The position numbers and the translations under genes were made by a program. From assembly GCA_022843855.1 (NCBI GenBank), contig JALHMV010000003.1, positions 6,560-70,559 on the forward strand: a DNA stretch of 64,000 bases. Direction: 5' to 3'. The notes below the pieces were generated by a model. That model was not told the origin of the DNA. It did not search any database and was given only the letters and a program-made list of their open reading frames with translations. Positions 33,576 to 57,693 of this stretch are shown here, piece by piece (within the stretch, counting starts at the first letter, position 1; each line of letters begins with the position of its first letter). Origin of the DNA: Patescibacteria group bacterium. Lineage in GTDB: Bacteria; Patescibacteriota; UBA1384; 2-12-FULL-50-11.

Positions 33576-33590
33576 TCATTGGAGTCACAG

Positions 33591-34827: not shown

Positions 34828-36383
34828 ACATCGGAGAACTTCTTTTCAATACAGCCAAAAAGGCGAAGCCCGTCAGCGATATGAAATATCGGCCGCAGCT
34901 CGACGAAGGGATGGCGGAGCAGCTCGGCGAGGTCCTGCACCGGCCCGGCATCGACCAGGCGGCACGCCGGATGGTCGGCGAGGCGATGGACGGCGGTGGC
35001 CACAGGCCGCGCTTCTTCGAAGCTCCTCCCGAAATGACGGATCAGACGATGACGATGGGCGGCACCGAGGGGGATCAGTTCGCCGCTCAGCCTCAGCAGG
35101 ATCCGCGAGCGGCAGCAATGTTTCAGCAGCAGACGATCGGCAACACCGACCCGGCCGCGATGATGATGCTCGGGCAGTCGCCGGAAGGTGCCGGACCGTC
35201 CACGTTGCCGGGCGGAGCGATGTCGGGCGGCGATCTTCCGATCGATCAGATTCAGCAGTACCTTGCCAACAACCCGGAAGGCACCGGTTCGCAGGGCGAG
35301 GTTGATATGTACAGCAGGCGGCGGGAAATGTCGCCACTCGAAGCTGCCAGAAACCGCTACGAAACGACGCCTCCGGCACCGCGGGAAAGATCGGTAATGA
35401 ACCGTATCGGTTCCGGACTCTGGAACGCGTTCCGGATGTGGGGCGAGAACGGCGGGCAGGGCGGACTTGCCGGCCTCGCGGGAGCTGCCGCGACGGGAGC
35501 GGGAGCGTTCGGCCTCAAGCCCGAAATGCACCAGCGATTCAAATCCCAGCAGTACAAGGATCGGGCTCTCGGTGAGTATCAGCAGGAAATGGAGAAAGAG
35601 AAGGCCCGGCAAGGCGTCACGCAGGAAGGGCTCAAAAGCCAGCAAGCTCTCTACGACCTAGCGAAGCCCGAGATCGACATGCTGGCCGGCAAAGGCTATT
35701 TGGACGACGCGGACCTGAACCATATCTCGCAGAAGTACGGGATAGATCTGCGCGACCCGAACAACCCGCGTTTCGTCGAAATCGACGGACCGGGCGGCAA
35801 GCGACTGATCCGCCTCCAGAACGAAGCCGAGTACGGAGTCAATACCAGCGTCGGCATCGACCCGCTAAAACAAGAGCATGACGTCGAAGTACCGGGAAGC
35901 CCGGGCAAGTACGTGCCGGCACTTCCGAAGGATGTTCTCGGCACCGCAGTCGGTGTCGCTCAGGCGAATGCCGGCAGGACCGAACGGGCGGAAACCCGCG
36001 AGGAGCGTGCGGCGGAACGAGCACAGGACCAGGCGGCGAAGACACGCGGAGCAATTGGTGAGGCCGATGCTCAGATCGCAAAAGCTTCGAGCGAGTTGAC
36101 CGACCTTTCAGTTGCTCGGCAACGCGATATCGACCAAGGGCTTGACGTCAGCGACTACGATCGGCGGATCGCTGCTCTCAAGGGTGAGATTGCCGCGGCT
36201 CAGACCAGGAAGCGGAACGCAGAGAAAGAAGCGAGCAAACCCCAAGGCGGAGCGGCCCAGCGGCGGGCGGGCGGCACGTTCAGCGAAGCCGAGGCCCGGC
36301 GCTACTACCAGAACCGCGGGATGAGCCCTGAAGCCGTCGAATCGGCGGTCGCAAAAGCTAAGCAAAATGGCGTGATCAAGTAA
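34824..36383 (+). CDS. low-complexity Gly/Gln/Ala-rich protein, internal virion protein candidate
   Basis: Composition. ATGA coupling upstream. Stop is 2 nt before the giant gene start. Confidence 0.4.
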   Translation: MNIGELLFNTAKKAKPVSDMKYRPQLDEGMAEQLGEVLHRPGIDQAARRMVGEAMDGGGHRPRFFEAPPEMTDQTMTMGGTEGDQFAAQPQQDPRAAAMFQQQTIGNTDPAAMMMLGQSPEGAGPSTLPGGAMSGGDLPIDQIQQYLANNPEGTGSQGEVDMYSRRREMSPLEAARNRYETTPPAPRERSVMNRIGSGLWNAFRMWGENGGQGGLAGLAGAAATGAGAFGLKPEMHQRFKSQQYKDRALGEYQQEMEKEKARQGVTQEGLKSQQALYDLAKPEIDMLAGKGYLDDADLNHISQKYGIDLRDPNNPRFVEIDGPGGKRLIRLQNEAEYGVNTSVGIDPLKQEHDVEVPGSPGKYVPALPKDVLGTAVGVAQANAGRTERAETREERAAERAQDQAAKTRGAIGEADAQIAKASSELTDLSVARQRDIDQGLDVSDYDRRIAALKGEIAAAQTRKRNAEKEASKPQGGAAQRRAGGTFSEAEARRYYQNRGMSPEAVESAVAKAKQNGVIK

Positions 36384-36385: not shown

Positions 36386-39300
36386 ATGGAACGAGAAACC
36401 GACTTTTCTGCTCTCGACGCGTTTGCGGATGATCCCGAGTCTCAACAGACTCAGGATTTTTCCGCTTTAGATGCCTTCGCAGACACTCCAAAAGCCGCCA
36501 AGCCAAAACCGAGGGCTCAGCGGCCCAAGCGAACCGCGTCGGCACCGGCAAATAAAGAAGCCGAGCGTCGCCAACGCGTGCTCGACCGGCTGCGTGGCCT
36601 CAAGCTCGACATGGAGGACGATGTCTTCGACGACTTCGATATGGTCACGAAGCACGAGTCCGGGCGCAGGCATTTTGACGACGCCGGCCGCGTGATCAGG
36701 GGCGTCCCGACCAAGTCCGGTGAGCGGGCGATCGGTTTCTCGCAGGTGATGCCGTCCACGGCAAAGAAATGGCAGAAGCACGGCCTCAACCCCGACGACG
36801 AGATCGACAATATCGCCATCGGGGCTCTGGAGTTCCGCAGCGGTTCCGATGACCCGATCGGTCGTCGCCTGGCCTACGTCGGCGGACCGAAGTCCCGGGC
36901 GCTCAAATACTACAAAAAGCACGGCGAGGTGCCGGATTGGAAGATGTACTCCTATCTTCCGAACAACAAGGAAACATTCCGGCACTACGTCGACCGGACG
37001 GGTGGATTCAAGGATCTGCGGCGGCTCGACGAGGTCGCAGGCGGCATTACCCGCGATCCGGTGTCCGGAGCTCCGCAGGTGGACTTCAAGGTCGGCGGTC
37101 CGACTGCTCCGATCGCGCACCGGCCGGAGGATATTGCTGCGTTCGATGCCAAGTTCCGGAAGGGCAAGCCGCCGAGGCAGCCAGCTCTTCAGCCGGGCGT
37201 GGAGGGTGCAGAAGACCCCAACGTCGATCAGTTCGGCAAACCGTTCAAATACGAGTGGCAAAAGACGGGCGATGTCGGCAACGGGCTGAAGTACGCCGGC
37301 GAGATCGACGGCCGCTATTTCGCCAAGAACGAGGACGGCGATACTTACGAGCTGGACGAAAAGACGAAGCAGTTCAAGCCGACCGCTCCGACAAAGCGGG
37401 CATACGATGCCGAGGGCAACGAGTACCAGCTCGACGCAAACCAGGACAACGTGCCCGAGGGCCACGTCCGCAGGCTGCGCGACGGCAAACCGTTCGTGTT
37501 CTCGCCGGACGGCACGATCCGCGAGGAGGGCGTTCCCGAGCTGCCACCGTGGGTGGCCGGCAAGACCCCGCCAAAAAGTGAGCTGCCTCCTGATCCGATG
37601 CTTCGCAAAGCGTATCAGACGCGATTGGAGCAGGGTTTTACCGATTCCGAAGAGCTGCGGCAGAAGTTCATTGAAGGCTGGGCCGCGGTCCAGGCCGGTA
37701 AGCAGCAAAGGATCTTCACGGACGAGGAGATCAAGCAGATCGAGGCCCTTGAGCTCTACGCGGCGAACAATGCCCAACAAGGCATCGTTCCGCAGGTGCA
37801 GGAAACGCCGACACGAGCGCGCCGGGCCCCGCGAAGCACGACCGCAGGACCGTCAACCGAGGGGATCGGCACGTTCTACGCCGACGTTGACCCGGCAACC
37901 GCTCCGCTCGGCTCCGATCCACGGCAGCACGTGTTCGAACAAGCGGTCCGTCAGCTCGGCAATGAGCTGTACGGCCGGCCGCTCGACAAGGTCGAGGTTC
38001 AGGCCGCTATCGAGTTCCAGAAGCGGCGAGGCGGCGACTTCGTCTATCTGACCGAGGGCGGCAAGGCTACCAACGTGCCGACCGAACCGACCAAGGGGCG
38101 TTATCAGATCACAGCGGAGCGTGCGGCCGAGATCCGCGACTTCCTCAAATTCAACCAACCGCTGCTGGAGCGGACGCGCGACGACGCGATCGCCAAGTTC
38201 ATCGCGAGCACGTTCGAGATCGACGATGCGAAGATCGCCGAATTTGCCGAAATGGGCATCAACGCAGACCGGCTCCGGGCGGCTCTCGAAAGTGACCCGA
38301 AGTTCGCCGACGCACGCAAGAAGCGACTTGAGAACGAGCAGTTCATCAAGGACTACGTCGCCAAGCAAACGACCGGGGCGAACGCGACCGCGGACAGTGC
38401 CGCGAACCAGACCGGACGCGTCCTCGAAATGCTTCGCAGCAAGGATCCCGCGGAAAACCGGCTCGGGCAGCAAGCTCTCGAGAATCTTTCCCGGCGATCA
38501 CCGAACATCGCCTACGTCGAAGCACTCGCCAACCTCGGCATCGTCCCGCGTGACGTGCTCGACAAGGCCAAGGAAGCCGAGCAAAGCGAGCTGATCAACG
38601 CCATCGCCAGTCTCAACGACCCGAGCTGGTACAAACGACTTCTCAACGACGTCCAGGACGGCGGCACCGGGTTCTATGAATTCGTCGTCGGCCCGTTCAA
38701 GCGGGCAGACCGGATCAAGGCCGCGAGGGAGCAGGCCCGGCCCGGCAAGGACGGCAAGCCATCGAACGCCGGCATCCTCCTGCCGATGGTCTATTCGGCA
38801 TGGGAAGGCCCGCCAGAGCTCCGTGGCGTGAACAGCCCGGAAGCCCAGAAGCGGCGGCGAGAAGCGATCGGCGATTCGCTGCGGTCGATGCAGGCTGAAT
38901 TCGGATCGATCGGCGAATTCCACAAGTTCATGGAAGCCAATGCCGGCGAGGAAGCGAACATCGGCCGGCAGTTGAAATTCTTCGGCTCGAACGTGCTCAA
39001 GAACATCGCCAGCTTCGGCAAGTCCGCGGCGGTGATAGATTCGGCAGCCGAAGATCTCGAAGTGCTCGGCATCAAAGTGCCGAAGGACTACATGCCGACC
39101 GTGCGGAATGCGATGAACGTCGTCGTCGCTCTTCGGAACGTGATGGCATCCGGCTCGGGGGTGATGCGGCCGTCCGACATCCTGACCCGCGACATCGAAG
39201 GGGCTCAGGACGATCCGCGGAATGCTCGTCTCTGGCAGTATGCCCGCTGGCTGGAGGAGTTTGCCGGCGATGACCGGTATCTGCAGCACACGTTCTCCGG

Positions 39301-42300
39301 CGAGGTCAATCAGGGCTTAGCGTCCGGTGTCGTCTTCCTCGGGGCAGGTTTTGCTCTCAAGAAGTTCAAGTACGCGATCCCTGCACTCGGCGCCGGAATG
39401 GAGATCGGCAACACGTTCGAGGAAATGGTCAAAGCGGGCATTCCCGTCGAACAGGCCAAGAATTGGGCGGTCCTCGTCGGTGCCGGCTCCGGCTACATGG
39501 AGAAGTTCGGATTGGGCGGCACGGCAAACCGTATGCTGGCCCGGCTCGGCACCGAGCTCTCCGATGAATCGGTCAAGACGCTTTCCCGGTCGATGGTCGA
39601 GTTCGCCAAAGCGGCCGGCCGCGGAGCTGCACAGGGCATCGCTCGCGAAATGCCCGAGGAAGCGATCCAAGAGTGGGCTCAGTCTTCGTTCGTGGATGCT
39701 GCGGTCAAGGCCATTGCCGCTCAAAACCCGAGCGAAGGCCGCCTGATCCTCAATTTTCTCGACGAGCTGCCAAAGGCGATCGCCGAGAACTTCCATTCTG
39801 CCGTGATCGGCGGCGCGACGGGCGGCATCCTCGGCGGCGGAACGCAGACGGTCGGCTCTGTGATCGGCGAGGGCATCCGTCAAAGCCGGATGCCGGGCGA
39901 ACAGCCGGAAGCGGAAGCAGAGATCCCGGAAGGCGAGCTCCGCACGCCACAGGCGGCCGAGGATGCGGGCGAATCCGCCATTCTCGAAAAGTTCGGCGAC
40001 CGGACCGGCCAGGCGACGGTCCGCGGGCTTGATATGGGCGGGCGAGATACGGCCGCATTGGACGATATTGCCAACGAGGTCGCTCCGGGAACCGTTCAGA
40101 CGCCTCAACAGGCGGCCACAGAGCCCGCTGGAGGCGTTCAAACGCCTGAAGGCACCCAAACACCCCCGGCAACGCCTCCAACGCAGCCAGCGGGGCAGGC
40201 AAAACCAAAAACAAGGCTTCCTCGCAACGTCATAGGCAAGGAAGTCGAGATCGAAGGCAAAGGCACCGGCCGCATCGTCGCAATTCGGCAGGGCAAGTTC
40301 GTCGTCGATTACGATTACCGCGGCAGACCGGGCGAAGAGTTCTACCATCGGCAGGACTTCTTCACGCCGGAGCAGCTCGCGATCGGCGGCACCAGCCTGA
40401 CCGAGTACAAGCCGCCGAAAGCTCCGAAGCAGACGACATCGGCACGGCAGCCGACGCAATTCGGTGCCGAGGACTTCGGGGGAGAGATCATCGAACGCGT
40501 TCCGCAGCCGGGGCAGGCCGGACAGCCGGCACAGCCTGCCGGACAGCCGACGACCGCCGAGGTCGTGCGGAAGATCCGCACCGGGCGGGCAGCTTCCGGA
40601 AAGGGTGCCGCGATCCAGAAATTCACGCCGACCGAGGACATGCCGATCGATACGGTCTATACCTCGACCAACGACAAGTACGATGTGGTCCCGGTCGTGA
40701 TCAGCCGCGACGACATCATCGGTTCGTGGGAGGAAGGTTATCCGGAGCTGCTTCAGCCGCGTGACCGTGACTCCATCGCCTCGGACGCTCAGGCCGATGA
40801 GATAGCACGCAACCTGATCCCGGCGAAGCTCGGCGACAACGTCAACGCCGGCGACGGCAGAATGCTCGTCGTTCCGGTCGAGGTCGACGGAAAGATCAAG
40901 TACGCATTGATCACCGGCAACGGCCGGACGCTGGCGCTCGACCTCGCCCGCGAACGCTACCCGGAGCGTTTCGAGGAGTACCAGGGATTCGCGAAATCAA
41001 AGGACCCGAGCGTTCAGGGCGACAACCTGATGTATGTCGGGATCCTCGACAACACAAAGCTCGAAGACGGCGACCTGCGGCAGATCGCAGTAGATGCCAA
41101 CAAATCGACAGTTGCGGCGATGAGCCCGGTCGAGCAGGCCAAGGTCGATTCGGAAACACTCGACTCCTCGCTGATGCAGAAGTTCGTCGTCAACGACGCA
41201 GGCGACATCGACACCGCAGGGAACCGCGAATTCATTGCGGACACTCGTCAGGACGACGACCAGGACGAGGCTCTTTCCGATGGAGAGCGGAAGCACATCG
41301 ACAAGCTGATCGAACAGGGCTTTACTGCAACGACCGGCAGGATGACGCCGAACGGGCAACAGTGGTTCCTCCTCGACACGAAAACGGGATCGCAAGAGCA
41401 GATCAGCCGAGCCGGCCGCGACTACGCTTATGAAAAACTCGGAACGCCGGACAAGCAGGGTTTGCGATCCGGGCCGATGTTCGACGAGCCGATCGAAATG
41501 CGTGGCGATACGCCGTCCGACGACGACCTCGGCAAGATGTTCGACGATCTGGTGCCGGAGGAAGATTCTGCCCCGTCGCTGTTTGACGCGGAAGTGAAGG
41601 CGGCGGACGCAGATAAGGCACGCATTGCCCGTCTGCCGGATGATGAGTTTCGCAAGGAGCTCGATAAGATCAGCCCCGAGGCCCTCGACAAACACGCCGA
41701 TCGATCGAACGGCGGACGCGACATTTCGTTTACGACCGCCGACTCGCCGGCGACCGAACTTTCCGGCCGAGGCAGGATCATCGGTGAGGCGATATCGAAC
41801 AATGAGAGTGTGTTCAAGGTTCGCCATTACGATCAATCGAAGGGCGAATGGCTTACCGCCTATGTTGCCGAAGCGGATGTTGACGAATGGCTGCCGGACG
41901 GCACGCTGAACGAATTCCTTGCCGCAAACCCGGACTCGGCGATCACGAAGGTGGGATTGCAGAACGGCCCGCTGCCCGAGCCAGAGCGGACGCCGGAAAC
42001 AGTCAAAAAGGCACTCGCACAAACCAAGCGGCAGATCAAAAAACTTGAGAACGCCGACGAGGTTGACGAGAACGCTCTGGCCGCAGCAGAGCAGCAGCTT
42101 GACAGCCTAGAAGCCGAGCTTGCAGCAATGGCGACGACAACCGCTCCTAAGCCCGAAGACCTCAAGGCCAAATATCCTGTTGGCCGCAAGCTGCTTCATC
42201 GCACGGGCGGTAAGCCATGGAAAGTTACGGGCCATCAATCGGATTTCGGTAAGTCAGGCCAGATTGGCATCAGGCTCGAACGCGGAACGGACAGGACGAT

Positions 42301-45300
42301 CATGTCCGTCGCCGATCTGGAGAAAAAGTTCAAAACAGAAAAGCCGACCGAATCGAATCGCCGGACCGCTGAGGACCTGTTCAGCGACACGGCCGCGACA
42401 ATCGGCGACCTGTTTGATACGCTCCAGACCTTCGAGATCGACCCGGACGCGACGGCAGGGCAGTTGGAGGAGATCGAGAAGATCAAACCCCAGGTGAACG
42501 CTATCAAGGGCCAGAGCAAGGCGGCAAAGGCCCAGCGGGAGCCGCTGCGTGCGAGGATCCGCGAACTGCAAGCCGAAATCACGTCCTACATGGACTCGCA
42601 GGAAACGGCATGGGTGCAGTTCACGGAGGACGTGCTTCAACAGCTCGTCAAGGCTGCCCAACAGTACAAACTGCTGGAGCAGCCTACGGACGAGAACATT
42701 CATTCGCTGTATGACGTCATCGAACGCCTGACCGACCCGCGATTCTTCGACGGCATCAACATGGATGTGCTGCTAGAGGATCACGTGGACGATCTTCTCG
42801 GCGAAGCATTCGATACGATACAACGGATAAAACGTACGTTCGTAACGGCTCCGCAAACGTCCGACACGACGCGGGCTCTGACCGCCGATCCCGAAAACCG
42901 CAGCCTGACTGACACGCCGGAAAAGCGGGCAGCAATGAGCCGGGCGTACCTCGCGGCCTACGCTGAAGATTCCGAGGAAACGTGGGGCGGGCCGATGGAT
43001 TGGGCCGCGGTCGACCAGCTGATGACGATGCCGCGAGAGGAATACGGCCTGGTCGGTGTTATCGAGCGATTCATGACGGATCCCGCCGTCGCACCGATAC
43101 TCGCCGAGCTCGAGCGGTCCGCAGGCGTGAGCGATGCGGAGATCGAAATACTCAAAGACTTTGGAGGAATTTATGGACTTGACCCGGACATCATCGAAGA
43201 CATCATCGGCGAGATCCTCGAAATCGCCCGAGATAGGGGAGAAACGGATGGAGGAGCTGCGGACACGCTTCCCGAACCTGACGGATCAGGCGCACCGGAT
43301 AGCGATCAAGGCAGCGAAACGAGCATCTTCAAGGAAGAACCGGAAGGCGAAGTCGGCAACCCCGACACGTCCGGCCTCTTTGCCGAGCAAGAAAAGCAAG
43401 AAGACGAAGAGCTGAGCAAGGAAGCCGAGGCAGAACGGCAGGCCGAACGCGAACGGCACCGCGATTTCCGGAATTCGGTGGCGGCTCAGGTCCCGGCATT
43501 GGACGATGTGCTTGCTTTTGAGAACCCGTTCTATAACGCAGGCAAGTTTCCAAAGAAAAAAGGGCAGGGATACGCCTCGAATGAAGAAGCATTGGCGGCG
43601 GAACGCGCAGAACTTGAGCGGCTGACAAATCGCTATAACGCGAATTTGGCCGATCTGAAAAATCCGGAAGCGACCGAGGAGCTTGATCAGTACCTCTGGA
43701 ACAGCGCACCGGTCAACATGAAGCTCGTCCTGACCCATATCGGATGGGCGAAGGCGAACATCAACGAGCTCGAAAAGGCACTCGGCAACACGCCTCCGTT
43801 CAAGGCCGGAAAGCAAAAATTCGATTGGTATTTCCCCTCGAAGGAAGAGGTGCGTGAGACGGACCAGGCGGACAATGCCGCGACGCCGGAGGCACAACCA
43901 CCGTCGCTCGAAGCGCTCCGCGGCGCCGAGCAGACCGACCTGTTCGGCCTCGAAGCCGACAACACCGGTCTGTTCGCTCAGGACGGCCCGACCGCGATCG
44001 AGCCAAAGCAAGCCGAGGATAACTCCAAAGCGGCGATCAAGGAATCGCTGCTCAGTAAGGCAGAAACCGAAGCACGCCGGCAGGTCATTGAGACGTTCGG
44101 CGAGGAGATCGGGGAGCTGCTCTACGACACGCGGAACGACAAAGCGACGCCGAAGGCTTCCTCGGCCGCACAGGGCATTATTTCCCGCTGGTCGGGCGAA
44201 GACACGGACAGCGAGGCGGTCCAGCAGCTGATCGCCGATGCCGCGACCGCGATAGAGTGGATCCGCGAGGCCGAGCTCCGCGGTGCGAACCTAGACGAAT
44301 TCGTCCGGCAAGCCGCGATCGGCCGCGAGGGGCTGACGATAGCTCAACGGAAGATCTACGACCTGATCGCCTCGAACAAATTCGGGAGACAGGCCGACGA
44401 GCTGCTCCGAAATGCGAAAACCGCCTCAGAAGTTGCCGCAAATGTTGCCGAGATAGAGGGCGGTTTAGAGGACGGCAAGGTCACGCTCCAGCAGCTGATC
44501 GATGTTTACGGCTACACGCACAAATGGGAACAAAACAAAAAGCTTGAACCGGCGTTCCGCGGTGCCTATGTGATCGGACGGAACGATGATTTTGTTTACG
44601 TCGAGGAGGTCTATGCCGGCGAGGGCGATCTTCCGCCGATGGTGGATGTCGTAATTGAGCATGTTGGCGAGTTCAGTGAGTTCGAAGCACCGGGCGAATA
44701 CGTCGTCACGGAGGACGATTTTTATTACTACTTCGGCTTTGATGTTAGAATCCCGGAAGGAGCAAAGGTTTATGATGACTATTTCGAGCGAGATCTGGAA
44801 CCGGATAGCGAGGACGGAACCGATGATGTCGAAGTTCGGGAAGACGATGTTCCGACTGAGCGAACCGGAGATGCGGATAGCCTGCGAGAGAGCGATGCGA
44901 AGCCTCCGGGCCAAAGGATTGAACCCGGAAGTGAGCAGAGCCTTTTTGGAGATAGCTCCGCTCTGGAAGGAACACCAGGCGATAGCAATGTACGCGAGGA
45001 AGCAGCCGAGCGTCCCGATGCCGTCGATCGAGACGCTGGACGAGGCGATGGAGTATCTCAGGAAGGAATCTCCGATGATCAGCAAGCAGCAAGCGACGCT
45101 GGCGGAGAAGCTGTTCCGCGAACTGAAGTAGATCTCGGAGCCCTATTCGACGAGCTGGTGCCGCCTGCCGGCGAAGCCCCGACCACCAACCTTTTTGGCG
45201 AACAATCTCGCACCGAGCCGGTTTATCTCGGCAACCAAAAGAAAGTACGAAAAGCGATCGAAGCCGGGCACGGTTTCCTCGCAGTTGCACCGAGCGGCCT

Positions 45301-51300: not shown

Positions 51301-54300
51301 CGACATCACGCCGGCGATGAAGCAATCGGTCATGGACGAAGGGCAGCCGATGTTCTCGATCTACGAACCGGCACGAAAAGAGGTCCGGTTCTACTCCGGG
51401 CTCGAGCGGGCGGTCGAAGGGCTCAAGCAAGAGAAGTTCTCGGTCGATCAGGTAATGAACGTGATCAATAAGCTGCCCGGCATCCGCGCGGAGGAGCTTG
51501 ATCACACCCTGCTGGATGTGTTCGTCCAGCTGCAAGCGGACCTCGGGGCAAGATCCATCACGAAGGACGAGCTGCTCAAGAAGATCCGGGCCAGCAAGAT
51601 CGTCGTCGAACCGCTCGCGCTCGGCTGGGACGGCGATCAGGACTCGGCCAAGTTCCGCGGCTATGCCGAACCGTTCCCGGCTTCGCGTGAGGACTACAAG
51701 GAAATGTTCCTCACCGCTCCGTTCGCAGAGGGCGGCTGGATCGACGGGCATCCCGAGTATGCCGACGTCAAGAACCCGGTCGTCCGCATCCGGATGGACA
51801 AGGTCACGCTCGACGATGGCCGTCGCGCGCTGATGGTCCACGAGGTTCAGGGGCCGGACGAGGACAACATGGCGAAGATGCCCGCGGTCCTGCAGAAGTA
51901 CCACAAGCAGATGGGGCTCAAGTACGCGATGCAGTACGCGATCGACCAAGGGCTTGATGCCGTCGCCTGGACGACCGGCGAACAGCAGCTTGCCCGCTAC
52001 CCGATCGAGAAAACGGTCGACCGGATAGAGTTCAGCAAGAACCTTTCCGGGCAGTCGCTTATCCGCGTAACGGCAAAGGGCGACCGCGATCCGATCAGGA
52101 TCACCGCGGGGCCGCACGGCACCATCATCAATTCGTCGGAGGACAAGTTCGTTGACCGGAAGCTGACCGAGGTGTTTCCGAAGGCTCTCGCCAATCAGAT
52201 ACTCGAACAGACAAGCGGCACCATCGAGGGCGACGGGCTAAAGATCGGCGGCGATTCGCTCCGCAACCTGTACGACAAGGTCATTCCGGCCCACATGAAG
52301 AAGATCTATGGGCGGTATGCGGCAAAGGTCGAAAACGGCGAGATCTCTTACGATCCCTATCTCAAGCTGACCGACTTCCGCGTCGAGGAGCTGGAGCTGG
52401 AGCTGGTCAACCCCGCTCCGCACCTGCATCGCTTCAAGGTCACGGCGACCGATTCGGCGACCGGCCTGCCGGCTTACCGCGGCACCTTCCTGACGCGGGA
52501 GGCGGCGGAACAGTACATCAAGGAAGCCAAAGAGGTATTCCGGCGTAAGACGCATCCGGTCTGGACGATGGGCATTACCGATCCGCTCCGCGAAGCTCTC
52601 GCGACCGATGAGCAGCCGATGTATTCGATCGAGGAAGAAAATCGCAAACAGGCGATCAAGATCCTCAAGACGCTCGATATCGAGGACGTCGTGCCGATGG
52701 TGGAAGCCACTCGCAGCGGTGACCGCGTGAAGCTCAATCTGCCGGCAATGGAACTGCTTCGCCGGGCTTTCGAGCAGGTCGATATCGAGGCAGGGAAGCG
52801 AAAGGTCGGCGACGAAAGCACGTATCCGGCGTTTCTCGGGCTGTTCACCGATGCCGCGAAACTGATCAAGGTCGAACAGGCGTTAATGGCCGCCGCCGTC
52901 AACGCGGCCGAAACGGGGCATCCGGCCGCGGACGCTATGCTGAGCGGCCTTGCCAACGACATCGCTGACGCACGCAAAGCCGGACAGCAGACCGCGGTGT
53001 TCTACGTGTACGATGCCAAGCTGCCGCAGGAGATCTTCCACCAGGCGGTCTATCTCGGTTCGGTCGAGAAGCACCTGACCAAACGCCATGCACGCCCGGC
53101 CGAGCTCGACAAGATGCCGCAGGTCCGGAAAGCGTGGGACAGCTTCTTCTCGCAGCAACCCGAGTACAGCCCCGAGCGGCTTCGCCAAACCGCCAACATG
53201 AGCAAGGCGAACGCTGAGGCTCTGAGCAAAGCTCTCGTTCGCGAGGAGGTCGCTGCGTGGGTCGCCGAGGGAAGCTGGGAAGAGCTCGGCCTGACCAAGG
53301 ACGAGGGGCAGGAATACTTGTTCGAGTTTCTTGAGTCGTTCGCCGACAAGGTCTATGCTGACACGAAGAAAGAGGGCAAGTCCGATGAGGACGCTGAGCG
53401 TGCCGTTGAGGCGGCACTCCGTCGATTTGAGGAGATTGAACATGTCCAAGAAGCAACCCAAAGAGTTCTCGCCGCAGCCCGAAAAGAGGTCGATGCTGGC
53501 ACAGACGGCCGACCTGATGGCCGAGATACGCAAGGAAATGCCAAAGGCAAGCCGAGCGGAGCGTCTGGCGGAGTTCAAGAAGCGCCACGACCTGATGCTG
53601 AGCAAGGAGCAAAGCCCTACGACCTCGAAGGATTCGAGCCCAAAACCCAAAGCAAAGTAGCCGGCGACGCGTCCGAGATCCCGGAAACCAAGCAGTTCCC
53701 CGGCGTCCGCTCCAAAACCGAACTTGCCAGCCTGCCCGGCACCGAGCGTGCGGCCGGCATCGCTGCCGACGATGTGATCTACACGGTGTTCAGCGACCGG
53801 GCAGCTCAGGCCGCGGCAAAGCGGATGCTCACCGAGAACAGCACCGAGGAAGTGCTGAAGATCCTCAAGAACACGGAAAGCCCCGACGTTCATCACGCGA
53901 TCGCCGCGTTCTCCATCCAGCAGTCGCTCCGTGAAGAAGCAACCCGCATCGAGGCGACGAAACCGGACGAGGCTGCCAAGCTTCGCCGCGTGTCAATCGA
54001 CCTCGGCGTCCATCTGGCAATGAAGATGGTCCGTGCCGGCCGCTTCATCCGGGCGGCAGGCGTGATCCTCAAGACAACGGACGGACTGATCGCCGTCGCC
54101 CAAAAGACGTACCAGGACCGCCACGGCGTCGGGAACGATCTGCCGGCCGACATCATTCGCCGGATCGAGGAAAAGGCCGGGAAGGCAGAAGTTGACCTCG
54201 CTGAGCATGAGGCTTTCCGTCGTCAAATGGAATCGCTGCAGCGACAGCTCGACGCGCTCAAGCAAGAGCTTGCCGGGTCCGAGGACGCCATCCGGACCTC

Positions 54301-57241
54301 GCGAAAAGTTACCGGCCGTCGCAAGAAGTTCGTAACCGAGATCCGCGAATCGCAGAAGGAATCGGTCGCTGCCGCCTTACAGCGAATGCAAAGCCGGGCA
54401 TTGATCCGGGCGGCATTCCCGCAGCACGTTTCGCCGATGTCGGCAAGCGAACAGCAGGTGCTCGACGATGTGACGATGATGTCGGTCTTTGACGAGGCGA
54501 AACTGCCCGACGAGATCCTGAAGGACATGGGTATCCTCGGCGCCGACATTCTGCTCGAAGGCCTCGCCCTGCCATCCGACAAGATGATCCGGCCGTTGAC
54601 GTTCGACGAGCAAATGATCGCCATGTACGGCGAGGACATCCGTCCGCATCTTGAAGACGTTCACCGCGAATCGCTTCGTCAGCGGGATGTGTGGATCAAG
54701 GAAAACCAGCGAAAGAAAGAGATCAAGGCCATCATTGACGAGCTCGGCGACCACCTGACCGAGGACGATATCGAGGCGATCATTCAGGCCCGTGCCGACG
54801 AACTCGAGCGCCGGGTGCTGATCACCAAGCTTCACCGTGTCCGGGCAGAGCGTGGGCAGAAGACCGAGGCCGTGACGACGATCGAGGGAGTCATTGCCCG
54901 CATCGCCAAGCCCGGCCAGGAAGCCGCCGTTGCGGCTGCGGTAGAGCTGATCCATCGCAAGCCGTCCGCGCAGGAATTCTACCGGCTGCTCGAAGCGATC
55001 GGGATCAAGAACAAGGATGCCCGCGAGGCTCTCCGCGAGGGCAAAGAGCTGCTCGATCAGGCCCGGCTTGTATTCAAACGCGAGGAGGAGGAGCGGAAGG
55101 ACGAGCTGCGGGACCGGATCAAGCAGGGCGACGAGGAGCTGCACCAGCTTGAGAAAGAGGTTGCGGCAAGCCGTGTCCGTGCCCGTGAATCGCAGGCCGA
55201 GATCGAGAAGGAGCTCAAGCGGATCGGTTCGGGCGAATTCATGTACCGCGTCTCGCAGGCACGAGAAGCGATAAACACGCCTCGGGCGATAATGGCATCG
55301 GCGGACCTTTCGTTCTTGCTTCGGCAGGGCGGTTGGTTCATGTTCGCCCGGCCGGAGGATCAGGGGCCGGCCTTCCTCGCGTTACTCAATGCGACAACGG
55401 AGCGGTTCAACCGGCTGGGCTACGAACGGACGATGGATGCGATGGAGGACAATCCATACTTCGAGCTGTCCGTTCAGGCGGGTATGGACTATGCCGGACT
55501 CGGCAAGCACGGCGAATTCTCGATCACGAAAGGCGAGGAAGAATTCCGCTCAAATATGCTCCGGCACATGGCGAATTGGAGCAAAGGGAAAAGCTTCCAC
55601 AAGTTCAATATCGCCCGCCTGCCGAACGCGATCATTCAGAAGTCGGACGAGCTGTACACCGCCTTCCTCGACGCTCAACGGCTTTCGACGTTCGCCCAGA
55701 CCGCCGAGTTGTGGGCTTCCCGCGGGATCACCTTCGAAACTCATCCAAAGGAGTACCGTGCGTTGGCGTCCTACATCAACGACGCGACCGGGCGGGCCGC
55801 GATACCGGAGCTGCTCGGCGGATCCAGAGCTGCCAGCCTGCTGATGAACCTGCCGCTGTTCGCTCCGCGGTTCACGCTCAGCCGGTTCAAGCTGCTCTGG
55901 AAATCGACGCTCGGCATGGCTTTCCTCCCACCGGAAACCCGGAGGATCGTCTTCCGCGATGCGCTCCGCTTCTACGGCACGACCGGGGCGTTGATGTCGC
56001 TGGCATGGCTCGGCGGGGCGACGATCGGTTTCGATTGGGACGATGCGGACTTCCTCAAGCTTAGATGGGGTCCGGAGGACAAAGACACGACGGACATGTT
56101 GATCGGTATGCAGCAATCGCTTCGCGTGACGATGCGGATCATCCAGGCATCGCTTCGCCGATTCGTCGGGCCCGAGTGGTCGAACGGGCTGATCCGCGAC
56201 AGCCTCTACCACGTCGACGACAATGGCCGCGTCCTGGTCAACGAGTTCCGGGCGGAAATGGGGCTCAACGTCGAAACGAGCATTTGGATGAACTTCCTTC
56301 GCACCAAGCTCGGGCCACCGGCCTCGCTCATGGTCGATTGGGTGCAGGATTCCAACGTGATCGGAGAAAAATTCCGATGGGACAAGGCGATCGTGTCCAG
56401 AGTAACGCCTCTCGGCCTCCAAGAGACGGTCGAGGCGGGCTACGACGGCGGCGTTGCGACCGCTCTGGCCGCGTTTGCTCACACAATGCTCGGCGTCGGG
56501 TACGGACACTATCAAAAGTCGCTCACAGGGCAGCGAACGGAAGCACAGAAGCTTGCTGCGAAGATCAATGGACTACGTTTCAGCTCAACGGTCGAAACCG
56601 AAGAGGCGAAAGCGGCCCGCGACGTCCTGAACGGGCTCCGCGATGCTGCCCGGCAGGGCGAGGATATCTCCGAGCAAGTGAAGGCAATGTACGAAGCCGG
56701 CGACCTGACCAAGCAAGAGGCTGAACGGCTTCTTCTTGGTGGTGAGGTCAACCCGCTCTTCCTGCAGATCCGCAATATGCCGGTCGGGCTCATCAAGGAG
56801 GTTCGCAAGATCGCGACGCCATCGGAAACGGAGATGATCGATACTCTGCTGGACTCCAAGCAGGCCCGCAAACAAAAGACCGATCGGCGACAATCGGCTG
56901 CCGAGGAGCTGTTCGGTAAAACGCCACTTATGCGCGGTGGCGTAACCGACGCCCCGACCAAGCCGCTCGCGGAGCGGATGAAGCGGGCAAGCGTCCGGGA
57001 CGCATTGATTCTGTATCAGGAGTACCAGGCACAGCTTTCCGACGAGCAAAAGGCGACGCTCCGCTCCGAACTACGCCGAAAACTCACGACGAGCAGCCGT
57101 CGCGGGACGCTGAGCGACGAAAATCGCGAAGCCGCGGAGAAGATCTTCGGCGGGGAATTGAACCTGCCTCGCCCTCGCCCACGACGGCGGAGCCCAAGCC
57201 GTTCACGGCAGCCGCTCCGCGGACTTGAAGGGGTATATTGA
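36386..57241 (+). CDS. giant multi-domain 'polyvalent'-type protein (6,951 aa): SLT-like, ParB-like, SF2 helicase, N6-adenine-type MTase, duplicated modules, C-terminal hydrophobic region
   Basis: Single stop-free frame of 20,856 nt. Motifs HES...GFSQVMPSTA (SLT), LQPR...GNGRTLAL (ParB-like), GTGKT/DEAH/SAT/QKEGRIYRLG (helicase), YYPTP/LEPSAGHG/NPPY (MTase). Confidence 0.8.
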   Translation: MERETDFSALDAFADDPESQQTQDFSALDAFADTPKAAKPKPRAQRPKRTASAPANKEAERRQRVLDRLRGLKLDMEDDVFDDFDMVTKHESGRRHFDDAGRVIRGVPTKSGERAIGFSQVMPSTAKKWQKHGLNPDDEIDNIAIGALEFRSGSDDPIGRRLAYVGGPKSRALKYYKKHGEVPDWKMYSYLPNNKETFRHYVDRTGGFKDLRRLDEVAGGITRDPVSGAPQVDFKVGGPTAPIAHRPEDIAAFDAKFRKGKPPRQPALQPGVEGAEDPNVDQFGKPFKYEWQKTGDVGNGLKYAGEIDGRYFAKNEDGDTYELDEKTKQFKPTAPTKRAYDAEGNEYQLDANQDNVPEGHVRRLRDGKPFVFSPDGTIREEGVPELPPWVAGKTPPKSELPPDPMLRKAYQTRLEQGFTDSEELRQKFIEGWAAVQAGKQQRIFTDEEIKQIEALELYAANNAQQGIVPQVQETPTRARRAPRSTTAGPSTEGIGTFYADVDPATAPLGSDPRQHVFEQAVRQLGNELYGRPLDKVEVQAAIEFQKRRGGDFVYLTEGGKATNVPTEPTKGRYQITAERAAEIRDFLKFNQPLLERTRDDAIAKFIASTFEIDDAKIAEFAEMGINADRLRAALESDPKFADARKKRLENEQFIKDYVAKQTTGANATADSAANQTGRVLEMLRSKDPAENRLGQQALENLSRRSPNIAYVEALANLGIVPRDVLDKAKEAEQSELINAIASLNDPSWYKRLLNDVQDGGTGFYEFVVGPFKRADRIKAAREQARPGKDGKPSNAGILLPMVYSAWEGPPELRGVNSPEAQKRRREAIGDSLRSMQAEFGSIGEFHKFMEANAGEEANIGRQLKFFGSNVLKNIASFGKSAAVIDSAAEDLEVLGIKVPKDYMPTVRNAMNVVVALRNVMASGSGVMRPSDILTRDIEGAQDDPRNARLWQYARWLEEFAGDDRYLQHTFSGEVNQGLASGVVFLGAGFALKKFKYAIPALGAGMEIGNTFEEMVKAGIPVEQAKNWAVLVGAGSGYMEKFGLGGTANRMLARLGTELSDESVKTLSRSMVEFAKAAGRGAAQGIAREMPEEAIQEWAQSSFVDAAVKAIAAQNPSEGRLILNFLDELPKAIAENFHSAVIGGATGGILGGGTQTVGSVIGEGIRQSRMPGEQPEAEAEIPEGELRTPQAAEDAGESAILEKFGDRTGQATVRGLDMGGRDTAALDDIANEVAPGTVQTPQQAATEPAGGVQTPEGTQTPPATPPTQPAGQAKPKTRLPRNVIGKEVEIEGKGTGRIVAIRQGKFVVDYDYRGRPGEEFYHRQDFFTPEQLAIGGTSLTEYKPPKAPKQTTSARQPTQFGAEDFGGEIIERVPQPGQAGQPAQPAGQPTTAEVVRKIRTGRAASGKGAAIQKFTPTEDMPIDTVYTSTNDKYDVVPVVISRDDIIGSWEEGYPELLQPRDRDSIASDAQADEIARNLIPAKLGDNVNAGDGRMLVVPVEVDGKIKYALITGNGRTLALDLARERYPERFEEYQGFAKSKDPSVQGDNLMYVGILDNTKLEDGDLRQIAVDANKSTVAAMSPVEQAKVDSETLDSSLMQKFVVNDAGDIDTAGNREFIADTRQDDDQDEALSDGERKHIDKLIEQGFTATTGRMTPNGQQWFLLDTKTGSQEQISRAGRDYAYEKLGTPDKQGLRSGPMFDEPIEMRGDTPSDDDLGKMFDDLVPEEDSAPSLFDAEVKAADADKARIARLPDDEFRKELDKISPEALDKHADRSNGGRDISFTTADSPATELSGRGRIIGEAISNNESVFKVRHYDQSKGEWLTAYVAEADVDEWLPDGTLNEFLAANPDSAITKVGLQNGPLPEPERTPETVKKALAQTKRQIKKLENADEVDENALAAAEQQLDSLEAELAAMATTTAPKPEDLKAKYPVGRKLLHRTGGKPWKVTGHQSDFGKSGQIGIRLERGTDRTIMSVADLEKKFKTEKPTESNRRTAEDLFSDTAATIGDLFDTLQTFEIDPDATAGQLEEIEKIKPQVNAIKGQSKAAKAQREPLRARIRELQAEITSYMDSQETAWVQFTEDVLQQLVKAAQQYKLLEQPTDENIHSLYDVIERLTDPRFFDGINMDVLLEDHVDDLLGEAFDTIQRIKRTFVTAPQTSDTTRALTADPENRSLTDTPEKRAAMSRAYLAAYAEDSEETWGGPMDWAAVDQLMTMPREEYGLVGVIERFMTDPAVAPILAELERSAGVSDAEIEILKDFGGIYGLDPDIIEDIIGEILEIARDRGETDGGAADTLPEPDGSGAPDSDQGSETSIFKEEPEGEVGNPDTSGLFAEQEKQEDEELSKEAEAERQAERERHRDFRNSVAAQVPALDDVLAFENPFYNAGKFPKKKGQGYASNEEALAAERAELERLTNRYNANLADLKNPEATEELDQYLWNSAPVNMKLVLTHIGWAKANINELEKALGNTPPFKAGKQKFDWYFPSKEEVRETDQADNAATPEAQPPSLEALRGAEQTDLFGLEADNTGLFAQDGPTAIEPKQAEDNSKAAIKESLLSKAETEARRQVIETFGEEIGELLYDTRNDKATPKASSAAQGIISRWSGEDTDSEAVQQLIADAATAIEWIREAELRGANLDEFVRQAAIGREGLTIAQRKIYDLIASNKFGRQADELLRNAKTASEVAANVAEIEGGLEDGKVTLQQLIDVYGYTHKWEQNKKLEPAFRGAYVIGRNDDFVYVEEVYAGEGDLPPMVDVVIEHVGEFSEFEAPGEYVVTEDDFYYYFGFDVRIPEGAKVYDDYFERDLEPDSEDGTDDVEVREDDVPTERTGDADSLRESDAKPPGQRIEPGSEQSLFGDSSALEGTPGDSNVREEAAERPDAVDRDAGRGDGVSQEGISDDQQAASDAGGEAVPRTEVDLGALFDELVPPAGEAPTTNLFGEQSRTEPVYLGNQKKVRKAIEAGHGFLAVAPSGLSRDEVAKSDIAIAAVGGAIKHLADRAAELGLTDNTHTIYQVSNENVWEYEIEANRSAESRGTTKKQRAAAKQTSIPRGSVPITKYRVYDANGVEQVGNIVDPAIAQRQLEHYPGGRIEAYDGYILKEFADKLTSAKESTGKGIDEAIKGLGKLFDPKKFKSSTVPAFDDETYQAAKPHFLEAYNHFKDAAQNIGDAMRLLIDQMRAEGYDNETLRLMKPYIVQFVADIRDGVIGQDLTTPEDIIDSVPEPESKDAAERLEQQKAAEGKSVKIGDLANIQATVPVLFKEQHEDVRFVEDALFVRDGNGVMLTNGTGTGKTFSGLGVVKRMAMQGKDNIFIVVPSQEIANAWISAATNFGLQVRQLADTQDNGAEGIVITTYANMQQNPSLIKRQWDLIVADEAHTLSSNKDGKPTGASKALRAMTLHKRGKMDYWRQATIKEVTEREQAEARIEVVRALLERYEDEGPQMADRAKEAREELRSLEDAVATLNKQIEKIGNAAVAEWDRRIADEPKGKALMLSATPFAYRKSVDYAEGYLFDYDDGKVPDDQLGRTRHYNEPNNQEAFMIEHFGYRMRYNKLTEPGPEVDTDIMERQFNTWLKQQRVLSGRMLGIDQDYSREFLLIKEGIGQKIDDGLKWLQEAEGGRFRPLAEIVNKSFSYHNRMFLLEAIKAKAAVPIIDAHVEAGRKVVVFHKFNVGGGFHPFKPKVPNEKTLISVGGKTIEVNLKDLYAEFTRKRPDLIALPFEGLESPIETFAESFKGGATSLQHVQLNGTQSKKANRESMAIFNTDNSEIDIILVQADKGQAGISLHDTTGKHQRVMIDLGLPSRPVEAIQKEGRIYRLGTKTNAPMFYFTTGTLWEATAFAQTMAERSSTAENLSLGEEARALRQSIIDSFLEPRTDPMPTELDGVGGKERDRAGQQAISEYERAKTFFFGQQKKTSKTKSAEGEDYYPTPEPLGLKMVEFADIAAGHSVLEPSAGHGAIARFLPQTSRNTVIEPSQELMTRLRLHIPPSDTNRFEQDVFESLDVRANKFDVVLMNPPYGKGGKTAMEHLAKAFEHLRTNGRVVAILPEGPAADKRLEQLMAGQTEKARKLIVRSDPNTFAPLSLYEGDTVQVTDKGTIYGVTRAETVRRGFEFIATLHGTDAQGSPMTMELRGSDRFDKVIAGPRIVPASTRVVKTAEISLPTKTFERAGTGVKTRMVVLDKLAGKELELHEPWGLLDLSDVRTFDELFDEFEELTIPPRPYGGEAARRAEQEAIEREAKFEAEREARAQQNASGRAAAIPHGQHAFDLREFQHTTQGHMIYVAKPTGPKMNKDEFKRISAIARTHGGYYSSFKKDGAIPGFHFRSPEARDAFNAEAEGDSTMLSIAEPAAAPAFYSAAERAIETKMPNRAPADQVRKILEGPGIKREEVEWLGVDEWLEGKRTVTKDEMLEFMRDARIQIEEKVLRKRERDERSPADRNSTDVDERHEAAREELAEMFDLDTWDIIPATVEATRQQLINDLLNRADQDDDLDEALTSVIGASSEEYWGIEEDDYEELEEAWDNLRMASREARGADGAMDEQDPATGALQYDNPDWRLSGPHSNYREFVFTLPQQYSMLRMKYRDELAAKYGSGEAVWQNWTEAEQAEFDRLTDIDLGNDANSPAFTTGHFGGMPNILFWVRATERIDADGKRVFVIEEIQSDWHQRGRKQGYNTKMPEPVFEWTTTEGVASGEWKAAISSPHGDIIGYGPTKERAAEAAKQSWRGKFSAIPDAPFKKSWHELAFKKMLRRAVEEGYDRVAWTTGKQQNKRWSLSKVVDEIESGIDHFDSNHPTRPDQEYLHITLRRDGGDLYLKVDPENGVVISAPDALLKTEGEHLSEVLPKAIADKILSEQYVLIEDIAEVEIGGEGMRGFYDKMVPGFVSKYVKKWGAKVGRTEIPTINDERSTLGGQRDRNELRKVADDFLTRNAIGIRELNDFVSTGRDISEADARAMSVDELTAYLLGTKYESLHSVDITPAMKQSVMDEGQPMFSIYEPARKEVRFYSGLERAVEGLKQEKFSVDQVMNVINKLPGIRAEELDHTLLDVFVQLQADLGARSITKDELLKKIRASKIVVEPLALGWDGDQDSAKFRGYAEPFPASREDYKEMFLTAPFAEGGWIDGHPEYADVKNPVVRIRMDKVTLDDGRRALMVHEVQGPDEDNMAKMPAVLQKYHKQMGLKYAMQYAIDQGLDAVAWTTGEQQLARYPIEKTVDRIEFSKNLSGQSLIRVTAKGDRDPIRITAGPHGTIINSSEDKFVDRKLTEVFPKALANQILEQTSGTIEGDGLKIGGDSLRNLYDKVIPAHMKKIYGRYAAKVENGEISYDPYLKLTDFRVEELELELVNPAPHLHRFKVTATDSATGLPAYRGTFLTREAAEQYIKEAKEVFRRKTHPVWTMGITDPLREALATDEQPMYSIEEENRKQAIKILKTLDIEDVVPMVEATRSGDRVKLNLPAMELLRRAFEQVDIEAGKRKVGDESTYPAFLGLFTDAAKLIKVEQALMAAAVNAAETGHPAADAMLSGLANDIADARKAGQQTAVFYVYDAKLPQEIFHQAVYLGSVEKHLTKRHARPAELDKMPQVRKAWDSFFSQQPEYSPERLRQTANMSKANAEALSKALVREEVAAWVAEGSWEELGLTKDEGQEYLFEFLESFADKVYADTKKEGKSDEDAERAVEAALRRFEEIEHVQEATQRVLAAARKEVDAGTDGRPDGRDTQGNAKGKPSGASGGVQEAPRPDAEQGAKPYDLEGFEPKTQSKVAGDASEIPETKQFPGVRSKTELASLPGTERAAGIAADDVIYTVFSDRAAQAAAKRMLTENSTEEVLKILKNTESPDVHHAIAAFSIQQSLREEATRIEATKPDEAAKLRRVSIDLGVHLAMKMVRAGRFIRAAGVILKTTDGLIAVAQKTYQDRHGVGNDLPADIIRRIEEKAGKAEVDLAEHEAFRRQMESLQRQLDALKQELAGSEDAIRTSRKVTGRRKKFVTEIRESQKESVAAALQRMQSRALIRAAFPQHVSPMSASEQQVLDDVTMMSVFDEAKLPDEILKDMGILGADILLEGLALPSDKMIRPLTFDEQMIAMYGEDIRPHLEDVHRESLRQRDVWIKENQRKKEIKAIIDELGDHLTEDDIEAIIQARADELERRVLITKLHRVRAERGQKTEAVTTIEGVIARIAKPGQEAAVAAAVELIHRKPSAQEFYRLLEAIGIKNKDAREALREGKELLDQARLVFKREEEERKDELRDRIKQGDEELHQLEKEVAASRVRARESQAEIEKELKRIGSGEFMYRVSQAREAINTPRAIMASADLSFLLRQGGWFMFARPEDQGPAFLALLNATTERFNRLGYERTMDAMEDNPYFELSVQAGMDYAGLGKHGEFSITKGEEEFRSNMLRHMANWSKGKSFHKFNIARLPNAIIQKSDELYTAFLDAQRLSTFAQTAELWASRGITFETHPKEYRALASYINDATGRAAIPELLGGSRAASLLMNLPLFAPRFTLSRFKLLWKSTLGMAFLPPETRRIVFRDALRFYGTTGALMSLAWLGGATIGFDWDDADFLKLRWGPEDKDTTDMLIGMQQSLRVTMRIIQASLRRFVGPEWSNGLIRDSLYHVDDNGRVLVNEFRAEMGLNVETSIWMNFLRTKLGPPASLMVDWVQDSNVIGEKFRWDKAIVSRVTPLGLQETVEAGYDGGVATALAAFAHTMLGVGYGHYQKSLTGQRTEAQKLAAKINGLRFSSTVETEEAKAARDVLNGLRDAARQGEDISEQVKAMYEAGDLTKQEAERLLLGGEVNPLFLQIRNMPVGLIKEVRKIATPSETEMIDTLLDSKQARKQKTDRRQSAAEELFGKTPLMRGGVTDAPTKPLAERMKRASVRDALILYQEYQAQLSDEQKATLRSELRRKLTTSSRRGTLSDENREAAEKIFGGELNLPRPRPRRRSPSRSRQPLRGLEGVY

Positions 57242-57366: not shown

Positions 57367-57693
57367 ATGCCAAACTCACGCACCGCAACCATTACGGCCG
57401 GATTTTCCGCCTCAGAATATAAACCACTTTTAACACTTCTCGGTTCATCGCTTGCCTCAAAGACACGCCGCTACCGCGACGTCAAGCTTGAGAACAAAGG
57501 CGACACTGACCTTTACATCGCCTCAATGCAGGCCGGATCAAGTCCGGCGACGCCGACCGCGGGCGACCGCAAGACGATCGAGGCAGGCGATGCCGAATTC
57601 CTCGGCGAGATCGAGACCGACCAGCTCTTTGTCCTGACCGCGAACGAAAGCGGCAACAACCAACTCGAGTTCGTCGGCGAACCGCAGAACTGA
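57367..57693 (+). CDS. hypothetical protein (first gene of lysis block)
   Basis: ATG in the GGAGTCACAGATG context. Confidence 0.4.
   Translation: MPNSRTATITAGFSASEYKPLLTLLGSSLASKTRRYRDVKLENKGDTDLYIASMQAGSSPATPTAGDRKTIEAGDAEFLGEIETDQLFVLTANESGNNQLEFVGEPQN

Follow-up and report, generated by a model that had tools for sequence, protein, structure and literature searches.

What could a virus of bacteria gain from a single gene of almost 7,000 codons? We addressed this question at a locus on a 64,000-nucleotide stretch of metagenomic DNA (hereafter the window; contig JALHMV010000003.1), whose forward strand encodes a protein of 6,951 amino acids (aa), here termed the giant. We conclude that the giant is probably a polyvalent protein packaged into the virions of a temperate phage, whose prophage, at least 72 kb long, is integrated in the genome of an Acidobacteriota bacterium. 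A virion-delivered protein of this class is what the original prediction, made from the sequence by eye, had proposed, and the idea agrees well with the features found here. The giant carries hallmark domains of such proteins, its gene lies in the late region, and its enzymatic core is 45% identical to that of giant proteins of the phages Parlo and ZX1. In addition, a protein likened to it by annotation and position (gp69 of phage JC1) has been detected in virions, and the giant contains no cysteine. Together, these features point to delivery into the cell at infection.

An open reading frame (ORF) of this length, found in a short-read metagenome and about twice as long as the annotated relatives, could be an artefact: an assembly chimera, a fusion of adjacent genes through sequencing errors, or a defunct gene of a prophage in decay. 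Several properties of the gene speak against such an origin. It occupies positions 36386..57241 (+), starts with ATG and runs through 6,951 codons with 0 internal stops and 0 ambiguous bases (N), whereas base composition predicts about one stop per 31 codons, so that the probability of a stop-free ORF is ~1e-99. The other five frames of 36386-57241 each contain 41-232 stops. GC content at the three codon positions (GC1/GC2/GC3) is coding-like over the entire ORF, and cysteine is absent along the full length of the product (computed mass ~772 kDa). The identical 6,951-aa product is recorded on three public contigs. A JGI contig of 759,380 bp and a separately assembled ENA contig of 55,886 bp, which derive from one activated-carbon drinking-water-filter project (PRJNA301005) and were assembled by different pipelines, both give the 6,951-residue product. 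Moreover, conserved pieces of the giant are collinear with other giants, some relatives are similarly long (6,327 to 7,483 aa), and the catalytic motifs are intact. We thus consider the ORF real and an artefact very improbable.

Most of what had been claimed for the gene itself was borne out, including a single stop-free frame of ~20.9 kb and a preceding ORF (34824..36383) that terminates with TAA 2 nucleotides before the ATG of the giant. The exception was third-position GC, estimated at 85-90% through most of the gene and measured at 0.63-0.82. Frame -1, antisense to the gene, holds just 41 stops and open stretches of up to 559 codons, which we take as a by-product of codon bias in a GC-rich gene and not as antisense genes. 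Fragments of the giant’s C-terminus together with the lysis genes were 100% identical in unrelated sequencing runs (Logan SRR28154529 and SRR28154524; loci L006 and L007), and the phage or its lysogen therefore recurs outside the original project without sequence change. Since all independent contigs are 100% identical, they offer no variation for estimating dN/dS (the ratio of nonsynonymous to synonymous substitution rates) across samples, and selection on the gene cannot be read from the population, a point that leaves some room for the artefact explanation. A megablast search with the gene found no match among 50,697 phage records.

A Pfam profile search of the translation, a reading of the helicase and methyltransferase motifs, and comparisons with related giants yielded the following features of the gene and its immediate flanks (window coordinates, strand).

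34824..36383 (+): upstream gene of 519 aa, 2 nucleotides from the giant gene, cysteine-free
36401..36484 (+): two DFSALDAFAD repeats at the extreme N-terminus (aa 6-15 and 24-33)
36563..37060 (+): SLT/lysozyme-like domain (aa ~60-225), a putative peptidoglycan-cutting head, from family identity and a fold match
38783..40585 (+): Gly/Ala-rich, mildly hydrophobic region (aa ~800-1400), common to a few relatives
40628..41236 (+): DdrB-type ParB domain (aa 1415-1617, Pfam core 1429-1538; PF18763, E 2.5e-10)
41243..45685 (+): acidic linker of ~1,480 aa, with Asp and Glu (D+E) up to 24%, largely orphan
46157..47920 (+): SF2/SNF2-type helicase (ResIII aa 3258-3383, Helicase_C aa 3737-3845; Pfam and phrog_10691)
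48218..48562 (+): S-adenosylmethionine (SAM)-dependent methyltransferase (aa 3945-4059), C-terminal to the helicase (MTS, E 9.6e-6; weak Eco57I)
48785..49405 (+): conserved post-methyltransferase segment (aa ~4134-4340; phrog_11358, phrog_15406, and jackhmmer on the collected giants)
49391..51370 (+): module A (aa 4336-4995, ~650 aa), a full-length copy of a widespread unnamed domain
51350..52645 (+): module B (aa 4989-5420, ~430 aa), a shortened and diverged second copy
52643..54685 (+): conserved fast-evolving region (aa 5420-6100), collinear with the relatives P0129, P0130, P0132 and P0125 (23-27% identity), with eight local matches
54683..57238 (+): C-terminal domain (aa ~6100-6720) and basic tail (aa 6720-6951), invariably at the C-terminus in relatives
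57693..58460 (+): endolysin (PG_binding_1 and Amidase_3), opening the lysis region just 3' of the giant gene

Because it combines a ddrB-type ParB domain, an SNF2 helicase with a methyltransferase, and an N-terminal SLT-like domain, the giant belongs to the polyvalent proteins described by Iyer et al. in 2017, as a new member and not a new kind. In their account, ddrB-ParB domains, SNF2-methyltransferase pairs and lysozyme domains recur in injected giant proteins (PMC5512222). The giant resembles this class in stringing many unrelated enzymatic domains into one chain, in its prophage late-gene context and in its predicted delivery with DNA. It differs in three respects: no LPD, MuF, ART or zincin domain was detected with Pfam; no Pfam family corresponds to the duplicated module, the best-conserved part of the chain; and its helicase precedes its methyltransferase, whereas the methyltransferase is usually N-terminal to the helicase in PMC5512222. 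The profile scan that had been suggested for this protein thus recovered the ParB, helicase and methyltransferase domains, left the SLT domain below threshold, and detected no MuF, ART or zincin domain.

The central enzymatic domains are well supported. The ParB-like domain noted originally proved to be of the DdrB type; it is 28% identical to aa 44-226 of DdrB from phage P1 (E 1.7e-11), which is the sole homology of the giant to a P1 protein. The predicted SF2 helicase was likewise recovered by Pfam, and its motifs are intact (GTGKT at 3287, DEAH at 3372 and QxxGRxxR at 3807). The predicted N6-adenine-type methyltransferase is represented by the Pfam MTS match, an NPPY motif at 4013 and matches to DNA methyltransferase PHROGs. 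NCBIfam gave helicase and methyltransferase matches far below threshold and no match to its PLxRFG model.

At the N-terminus, where an SLT-type motif had been proposed, the evidence lies at the level of fold. The domain at aa ~60-225 is ~50% identical to the extreme N-termini of nine other giants, and E91-S92, AIGFSQVM and AYVGG are invariant among the ten sequences of this family, the first of these supplying the expected catalytic Glu-Ser pair. Pfam SLT (PF01464) scored 13.4 bits against a gathering score of 21.3, and four of the ten family members matched it, with a best E of 0.0071. An AlphaFold2 model of the domain (pLDDT, the predicted local distance difference test score, 78) had as its top Foldseek matches in the PDB the lytic transglycosylases MltD, Slt70, MltF and EtgA (probability 0.99, E 7e-3, TM-score 0.42-0.46). 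A profile search of the domain against the PDB gave no match, and phmmer searches of the N-terminus and of the whole giant against PDB sequences gave nothing meaningful. Hence, the fold and the catalytic pair uphold the proposed motif, the Pfam threshold does not, and we describe the domain as divergent, SLT-like and putatively muralytic. The two DFSALDAFAD repeats that precede it were both located as described, and a similar sequence, DDFSALD, stands just after the SLT-like domain of the relative P0132.

The closest annotated counterparts of the core come from temperate podophages. The helicase-methyltransferase region matches phrog_10691 with an E of 1.7e-288, and is 45% identical over ~850 aa to gp81 of Serratia phage Parlo (“DarB-like antirestriction”, 3,764 aa) and to the giant of Klebsiella phage ZX1 (“PLxRFG protein”, 3,867 aa). 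The post-methyltransferase segment is also common to the Parlo and ZX1 giants and to other polyvalent proteins. In both phages, the gene of the giant closes the virion block and is followed at once by endolysin and holin genes, and its product has no cysteines; Parlo gp81 also shows the same helicase-then-methyltransferase order and a bona fide Pfam SLT domain at aa 44-150. The placement of the present gene agrees with this, as the original prediction had it: endolysin and holin lie directly downstream and tail-like genes upstream. The Parlo and ZX1 proteins differ in lacking the module, the ParB domain and the C-terminal domain of the present giant, which is nearly twice as long and comes from another host phylum (Acidobacteriota). 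The present giant in turn has no PLxRFG motif (only PLFAPRF at 6490) and no match to LPD39, a domain shown in Parlo gp81 only. BLAST similarity to the Parlo and ZX1 proteins does not extend beyond aa 4218, and the C-terminal pieces had no NCBIfam match. Two further proteins, gp69 of the Bcep22-like Burkholderia phage JC1 (4,515 aa, DarB-like) and gp75 of Bcep22, are likened to the giant by annotation and gene position alone, from the literature; 51 unique peptides of JC1 gp69 were obtained from caesium chloride-purified virions (PMC9144972).

The strongest sequence-level argument for ejection is the amino acid that the giant avoids. None of its 6,951 residues is a cysteine; elsewhere among the window's genes the frequency is 0.93%, which gives a chance probability of ~8e-29 for zero. 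The same avoidance was evident in hundreds of giant relatives: 120 database homologs contain 30 cysteines in 357,839 aa (103 of the 120 have none), and module-bearing ORFs from IMG/VR contain 47 in 156,136 aa. As a control, we inspected proteins with an established ejected fate. T7 gp15 (747 aa) and gp16 (1,318 aa) and N4 gp50 (the virion RNA polymerase, 3,500 aa), gp51 and gp52 all have 0 cysteines, whereas the portal, tail, fibre, terminase, polymerase and primase proteins of T7 and N4 have 0.3-1.4%. Unlike the giant class, P1 DarB, which is carried in a myovirus head, is not cysteine-free. Avoidance of cysteine thus acts as a mark of proteins whose way out of the virion is a short tail and which then meet the oxidising periplasm. 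That the giant shares it with T7 gp15 and gp16 and the N4 virion RNA polymerase supports ejection. The word “cysteine” is absent from Iyer et al. (PMC5512222), from a review of ejection proteins (PMC8954989) and from a 2026 paper on N4 ejection.

T7 gp16 and N4 gp50 offer further parallels, each being a giant cysteine-free chain that travels in the capsid and leaves it by way of a short tail. T7 gp16 carries the annotation of an internal virion protein that includes an endolysin domain; like the giant with its SLT-like domain, it pairs an N-terminal muralytic domain with the lack of cysteine. N4 gp50 shows that an enzyme of 3,500 aa can be ejected and turn active. The parallel does not extend to sequence, as no similarity to either protein was detected and the giant has no RNA polymerase domain.

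These same observations bear on whether the giant is packaged at all. It could instead be a late enzyme complex that stays in the cytoplasm of the producing cell, where it would modify or remodel DNA or counter defences, for instance through methylation of progeny DNA ahead of packaging. A helicase and a methyltransferase would be equally suited to replicating DNA, and the structural genes that flank the giant gene are unrecognisable. Such a complex would leave unexplained, however, the muralytic-like domain at the N-terminus, the complete exclusion of cysteine common to proven ejected proteins, the position in the virion and lysis block common to Parlo and ZX1, and the detection of JC1 gp69, of similar annotation and placement, in virions. 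We therefore regard a purely cytoplasmic role as improbable.

The most widespread part of the giant is its duplicated module. Self-BLASTP of the full protein gave the identity match only, and the duplication appeared on comparing the halves of the protein directly, with modules A and B 32% identical (E 5e-22). The tandem duplication suspected originally is real, and the two copies are not the equal units of ~430 aa that had been described: B has that length, and A is ~650 aa long. A word-indexed search with the module yielded ~970 matches, and an exhaustive search 15,040 cluster representatives at E<=0.001 (9,813 at E<=1e-30). At least 583 module loci lie on IMG/VR viral contigs, mostly of 35-70 kb, and 150 in species-representative genomes, mostly from Gram-negative phyla and including several Acidobacteriota. 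Most homologs are themselves giants of 1,500-4,600 aa (word-indexed and cluster matches, mostly 1,500-7,500 aa), and where Pfam domains had been precomputed for them, these belong to polyvalent-protein families of the PF187xx-PF188xx range, including PF18760, PF18834, PF18857, PF18823 and others (ART-PolyVal, LPDs). In some viral contigs, the module forms a stand-alone ORF of 700-900 aa (~700-850 aa in L009, L010, L024, L026, L037, L040, L045 and L062), which suggests that it is able to act alone.

The biochemical nature of the module is less clear. We tentatively assign its core a GNAT-like fold. The residues E4656, E4657, Q4659 and H4663 of module A are invariant. No Pfam match, GNAT included, was found in 13 members, nor any NCBIfam match; a profile search of the module against the PDB gave nothing, and Foldseek found no significant PDB match for its model. 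By our reading, the conserved WHQxGRKxGY of the module misfits the canonical Q/RxxGxG/A spacing of GNAT proteins. Parlo gp77 (L001 6972-7397) and a ZX1 gene (L002 6714-7169) are small genes annotated as GNAT/acyl-CoA N-acyltransferase and located four genes upstream of the respective giant. Neither has a Pfam match at E<=0.001, and they may parallel the GNAT-like module found here.

The module boundaries raise the main rival to an intact delivered chain, namely that the giant is a polyprotein precursor from which separate enzymes and structural pieces are cleaved, either ahead of packaging or once the chain has been ejected, so that the working units would be far smaller than 6,951 aa. The motif M[LFY]SI occurs at 4341, 4989 and 5412 (nucleotides ~49406, 51350 and 52619), that is, at the start of A, the A/B junction and the end of B; it is preceded by QP at 4989 and 5412, and the family consensus finishes in EGQP[ML]F. 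This motif may mark a domain boundary or a processing site, and its precise placement at all three module boundaries would fit processing. A protease could reach the long acidic stretches that separate the domains, the stand-alone module ORFs fit the same scheme, and P1 DdrB and DarA are processed before packaging (PMC5512222). Against this, the chain has no HExxH motif and no match to a peptidase family anywhere along its length, and the virion RNA polymerase of N4, at 3,500 aa, is packaged unprocessed (PMC5512222). We consider processing rather unlikely, and delivery of the chain as a whole the better account. A zincin self-processing domain within the giant was rejected for want of HExxH.

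Outside the enzymatic core, the giant follows a plan shared with other giants. Three pieces, namely the SLT-like domain, the module and the C-terminal region (aa ~5420-6951), recur in the same order, and the last ~850 residues are invariably C-terminal. The C-terminal domain is 23-28% identical to the C-termini of nine relatives (P0007, P0009, P0010, P0011, P0021, P0028, P0047, P0124 and P0129), with matches that finish a median of 118 and 25 residues from the relatives’ C-terminus; together with the tail, it is a candidate packaging or anchoring element. Word-indexed searches returned nine matches for the N-terminal 3,200 aa and two for the C-terminal 1,530 aa, and local jackhmmer on the collected giants was used instead. 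The giant is thus a mosaic, in which a Parlo-type helicase-methyltransferase cassette sits in a different chassis. None of the relatives examined showed the same set of domains.

The original prediction of several hydrophobic helices near the C-terminus did not hold. The top Kyte-Doolittle mean over 19 residues is 1.38 in the whole protein and 1.17 within aa 6339-6705, which we judged too low for a transmembrane helix, and a transmembrane C-terminus was rejected accordingly; amphipathic or oligomeric insertion into a membrane would still be compatible with such values. In the Gly/Ala-rich region, which has collinear high-scoring segment pairs in P0125 and P0130 and four local jackhmmer matches, hydropathy peaks at aa 909-927 and 973-991 were likewise below transmembrane grade. 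The acidic linkers contain a cluster of nine [DSGNTA]LF[GDASE] motifs (aa 1731-2935), compared with 3.1 +/- 1.8 in shuffled sequences. We did not use these as evidence for docking or clamp-binding sites, given that the enrichment is modest here and weak in homologs (207 vs 160).

The size of the giant places it, as predicted, among the largest phage proteins, and does not set it apart. Among the top 150 representatives alone, relatives reach 7,483, 7,091, 7,058 and 6,796 aa. Module-bearing ORFs in IMG/VR are typically 2,500-3,100 aa long, with one complete ORF of 6,327 aa and several that run past 4,700-5,300 aa where the retrieved flanking sequence ends.

Based on these results, we propose the following course of events. 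The giant would be made late and packed inside the capsid, possibly positioned or anchored by its conserved C-terminal ~850 aa. At infection, it would leave by the tail in a largely unfolded state, either before the DNA or together with it, and its N-terminal SLT-like domain would cut the peptidoglycan locally. The chain would then bring a number of enzymes into the cell, in cis with the incoming genome. Among these, the DdrB-type ParB domain would be nuclease- or NTPase-like, and the SNF2-type translocase with its NPPY adenine-type methyltransferase would modify or shield the entering DNA against restriction, as a functional analogue of P1 DarB. The two modules with a GNAT-like core could act as an acyltransferase on a host target.

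Several points weigh against this account. Both the phage and the protein are known here from their genes alone. The SLT assignment lies below the Pfam threshold and its fold match is moderate. The acidic linker of ~1,500 aa and other long stretches have no detectable homologs; for aa 1640-3100, none were found by word-indexed search or by local jackhmmer on the collected giants. The structural genes are nearly unmatched, so that it is the giant gene and its place in the genome that carry the comparison with podophages. As there are neither transmembrane-grade segments nor an HExxH motif, channel formation and self-processing have no support. The comparison with P1 DarB (2,255 aa) made in the original prediction holds as a functional analogy: DarB, an antirestriction protein inside the capsid, joins a methyltransferase to an SF2 helicase, and the giant carries these two domains with intact motifs. 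It does not hold as homology: whole-protein BLASTP gave no high-scoring segment pair at E<0.01, and the order of domains in DarB is reversed (methyltransferase at 145-290, SNF2 at 849-911 and Helicase_C at 1455-1517). Furthermore, the DarB methyltransferase matches N6_Mtase/Eco57I and not MTS, and DarB has 9 cysteines. With these reservations, a packaged and ejected polyvalent protein remains the explanation that we favour.

The genomic setting is that of a prophage of at least ~72 kb, of which the giant gene makes up ~29%. On its 3' side, the order is a small ORF, the endolysin, a gene with a RyR (ryanodine-receptor repeat) domain and a holin; ~6 kb beyond the holin, a tyrosine integrase is followed by the host genes DedA, pcm, surE and rpsU. 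Flanking host proteins share 90%-identity clusters with proteins of Acidobacteriota/Pyrinomonadaceae metagenome-assembled genomes, which identifies the host as an Acidobacteriota bacterium. The early region and the sequence to its left encode an S24 repressor, DnaB and a ParB protein. Most structural genes of the window had no match in PHROGs or Pfam, and the phage is thus distant from cultured phages.

Some of the neighbouring genes merit a brief description. The RyR gene (58466-58984), between the endolysin and the holin, strongly matches phrog_5154, of unknown function (E 3e-46). On the 5' side, the interval from the tail-like genes to the giant gene contains a small SAM methyltransferase gene (32865-33410; phrog_6636, E 6.6e-10) and a PAPS-reductase-like gene (34075-34827; phrog_424, E 1.2e-6, with a match to an N-terminal piece only), which, judging by these matches, may form a DNA-modification pair. 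In the early region, beside DnaB-like and HTH genes, a 615-aa protein with ParB_N and HTH_ParB domains (6677-8524) is unrelated to the DdrB-type ParB domain within the giant. Four late-region genes are cysteine-free and without family matches, namely 34824-36383 (519 aa), 33534-34067 (177 aa), 29922-32120 (732 aa) and 17130-18848 (572 aa). Their products are candidates for co-ejected or internal virion proteins. The first of them, the 519-aa protein encoded directly upstream of the giant and also without a phage tblastn match, is accordingly a candidate for a co-packaged or ejected protein.

As a single gene, the giant is an extreme but not a record-size example, and mainly extends the known range of a described class. 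A broader and more tentative possibility concerns its family. The module may form the heart of a very large family of ejected phage proteins that has no name as yet (~15,000 clusters at 50% identity, across many phyla, mostly Gram-negative), and perhaps a GNAT acyltransferase that would modify a host target seconds into infection, much as the toxins TacT and AtaT acetylate aminoacyl-tRNA. Near-total cysteine exclusion may be a general signature, computable from sequence, of proteins that exit through the tail and cross the oxidising periplasm, and could serve as a simple predictor of injected phage proteins. If so, ejected proteins would become predictable genome-wide. The domain family, with ~15,000 representatives and no Pfam match, may represent a new injected enzyme activity.

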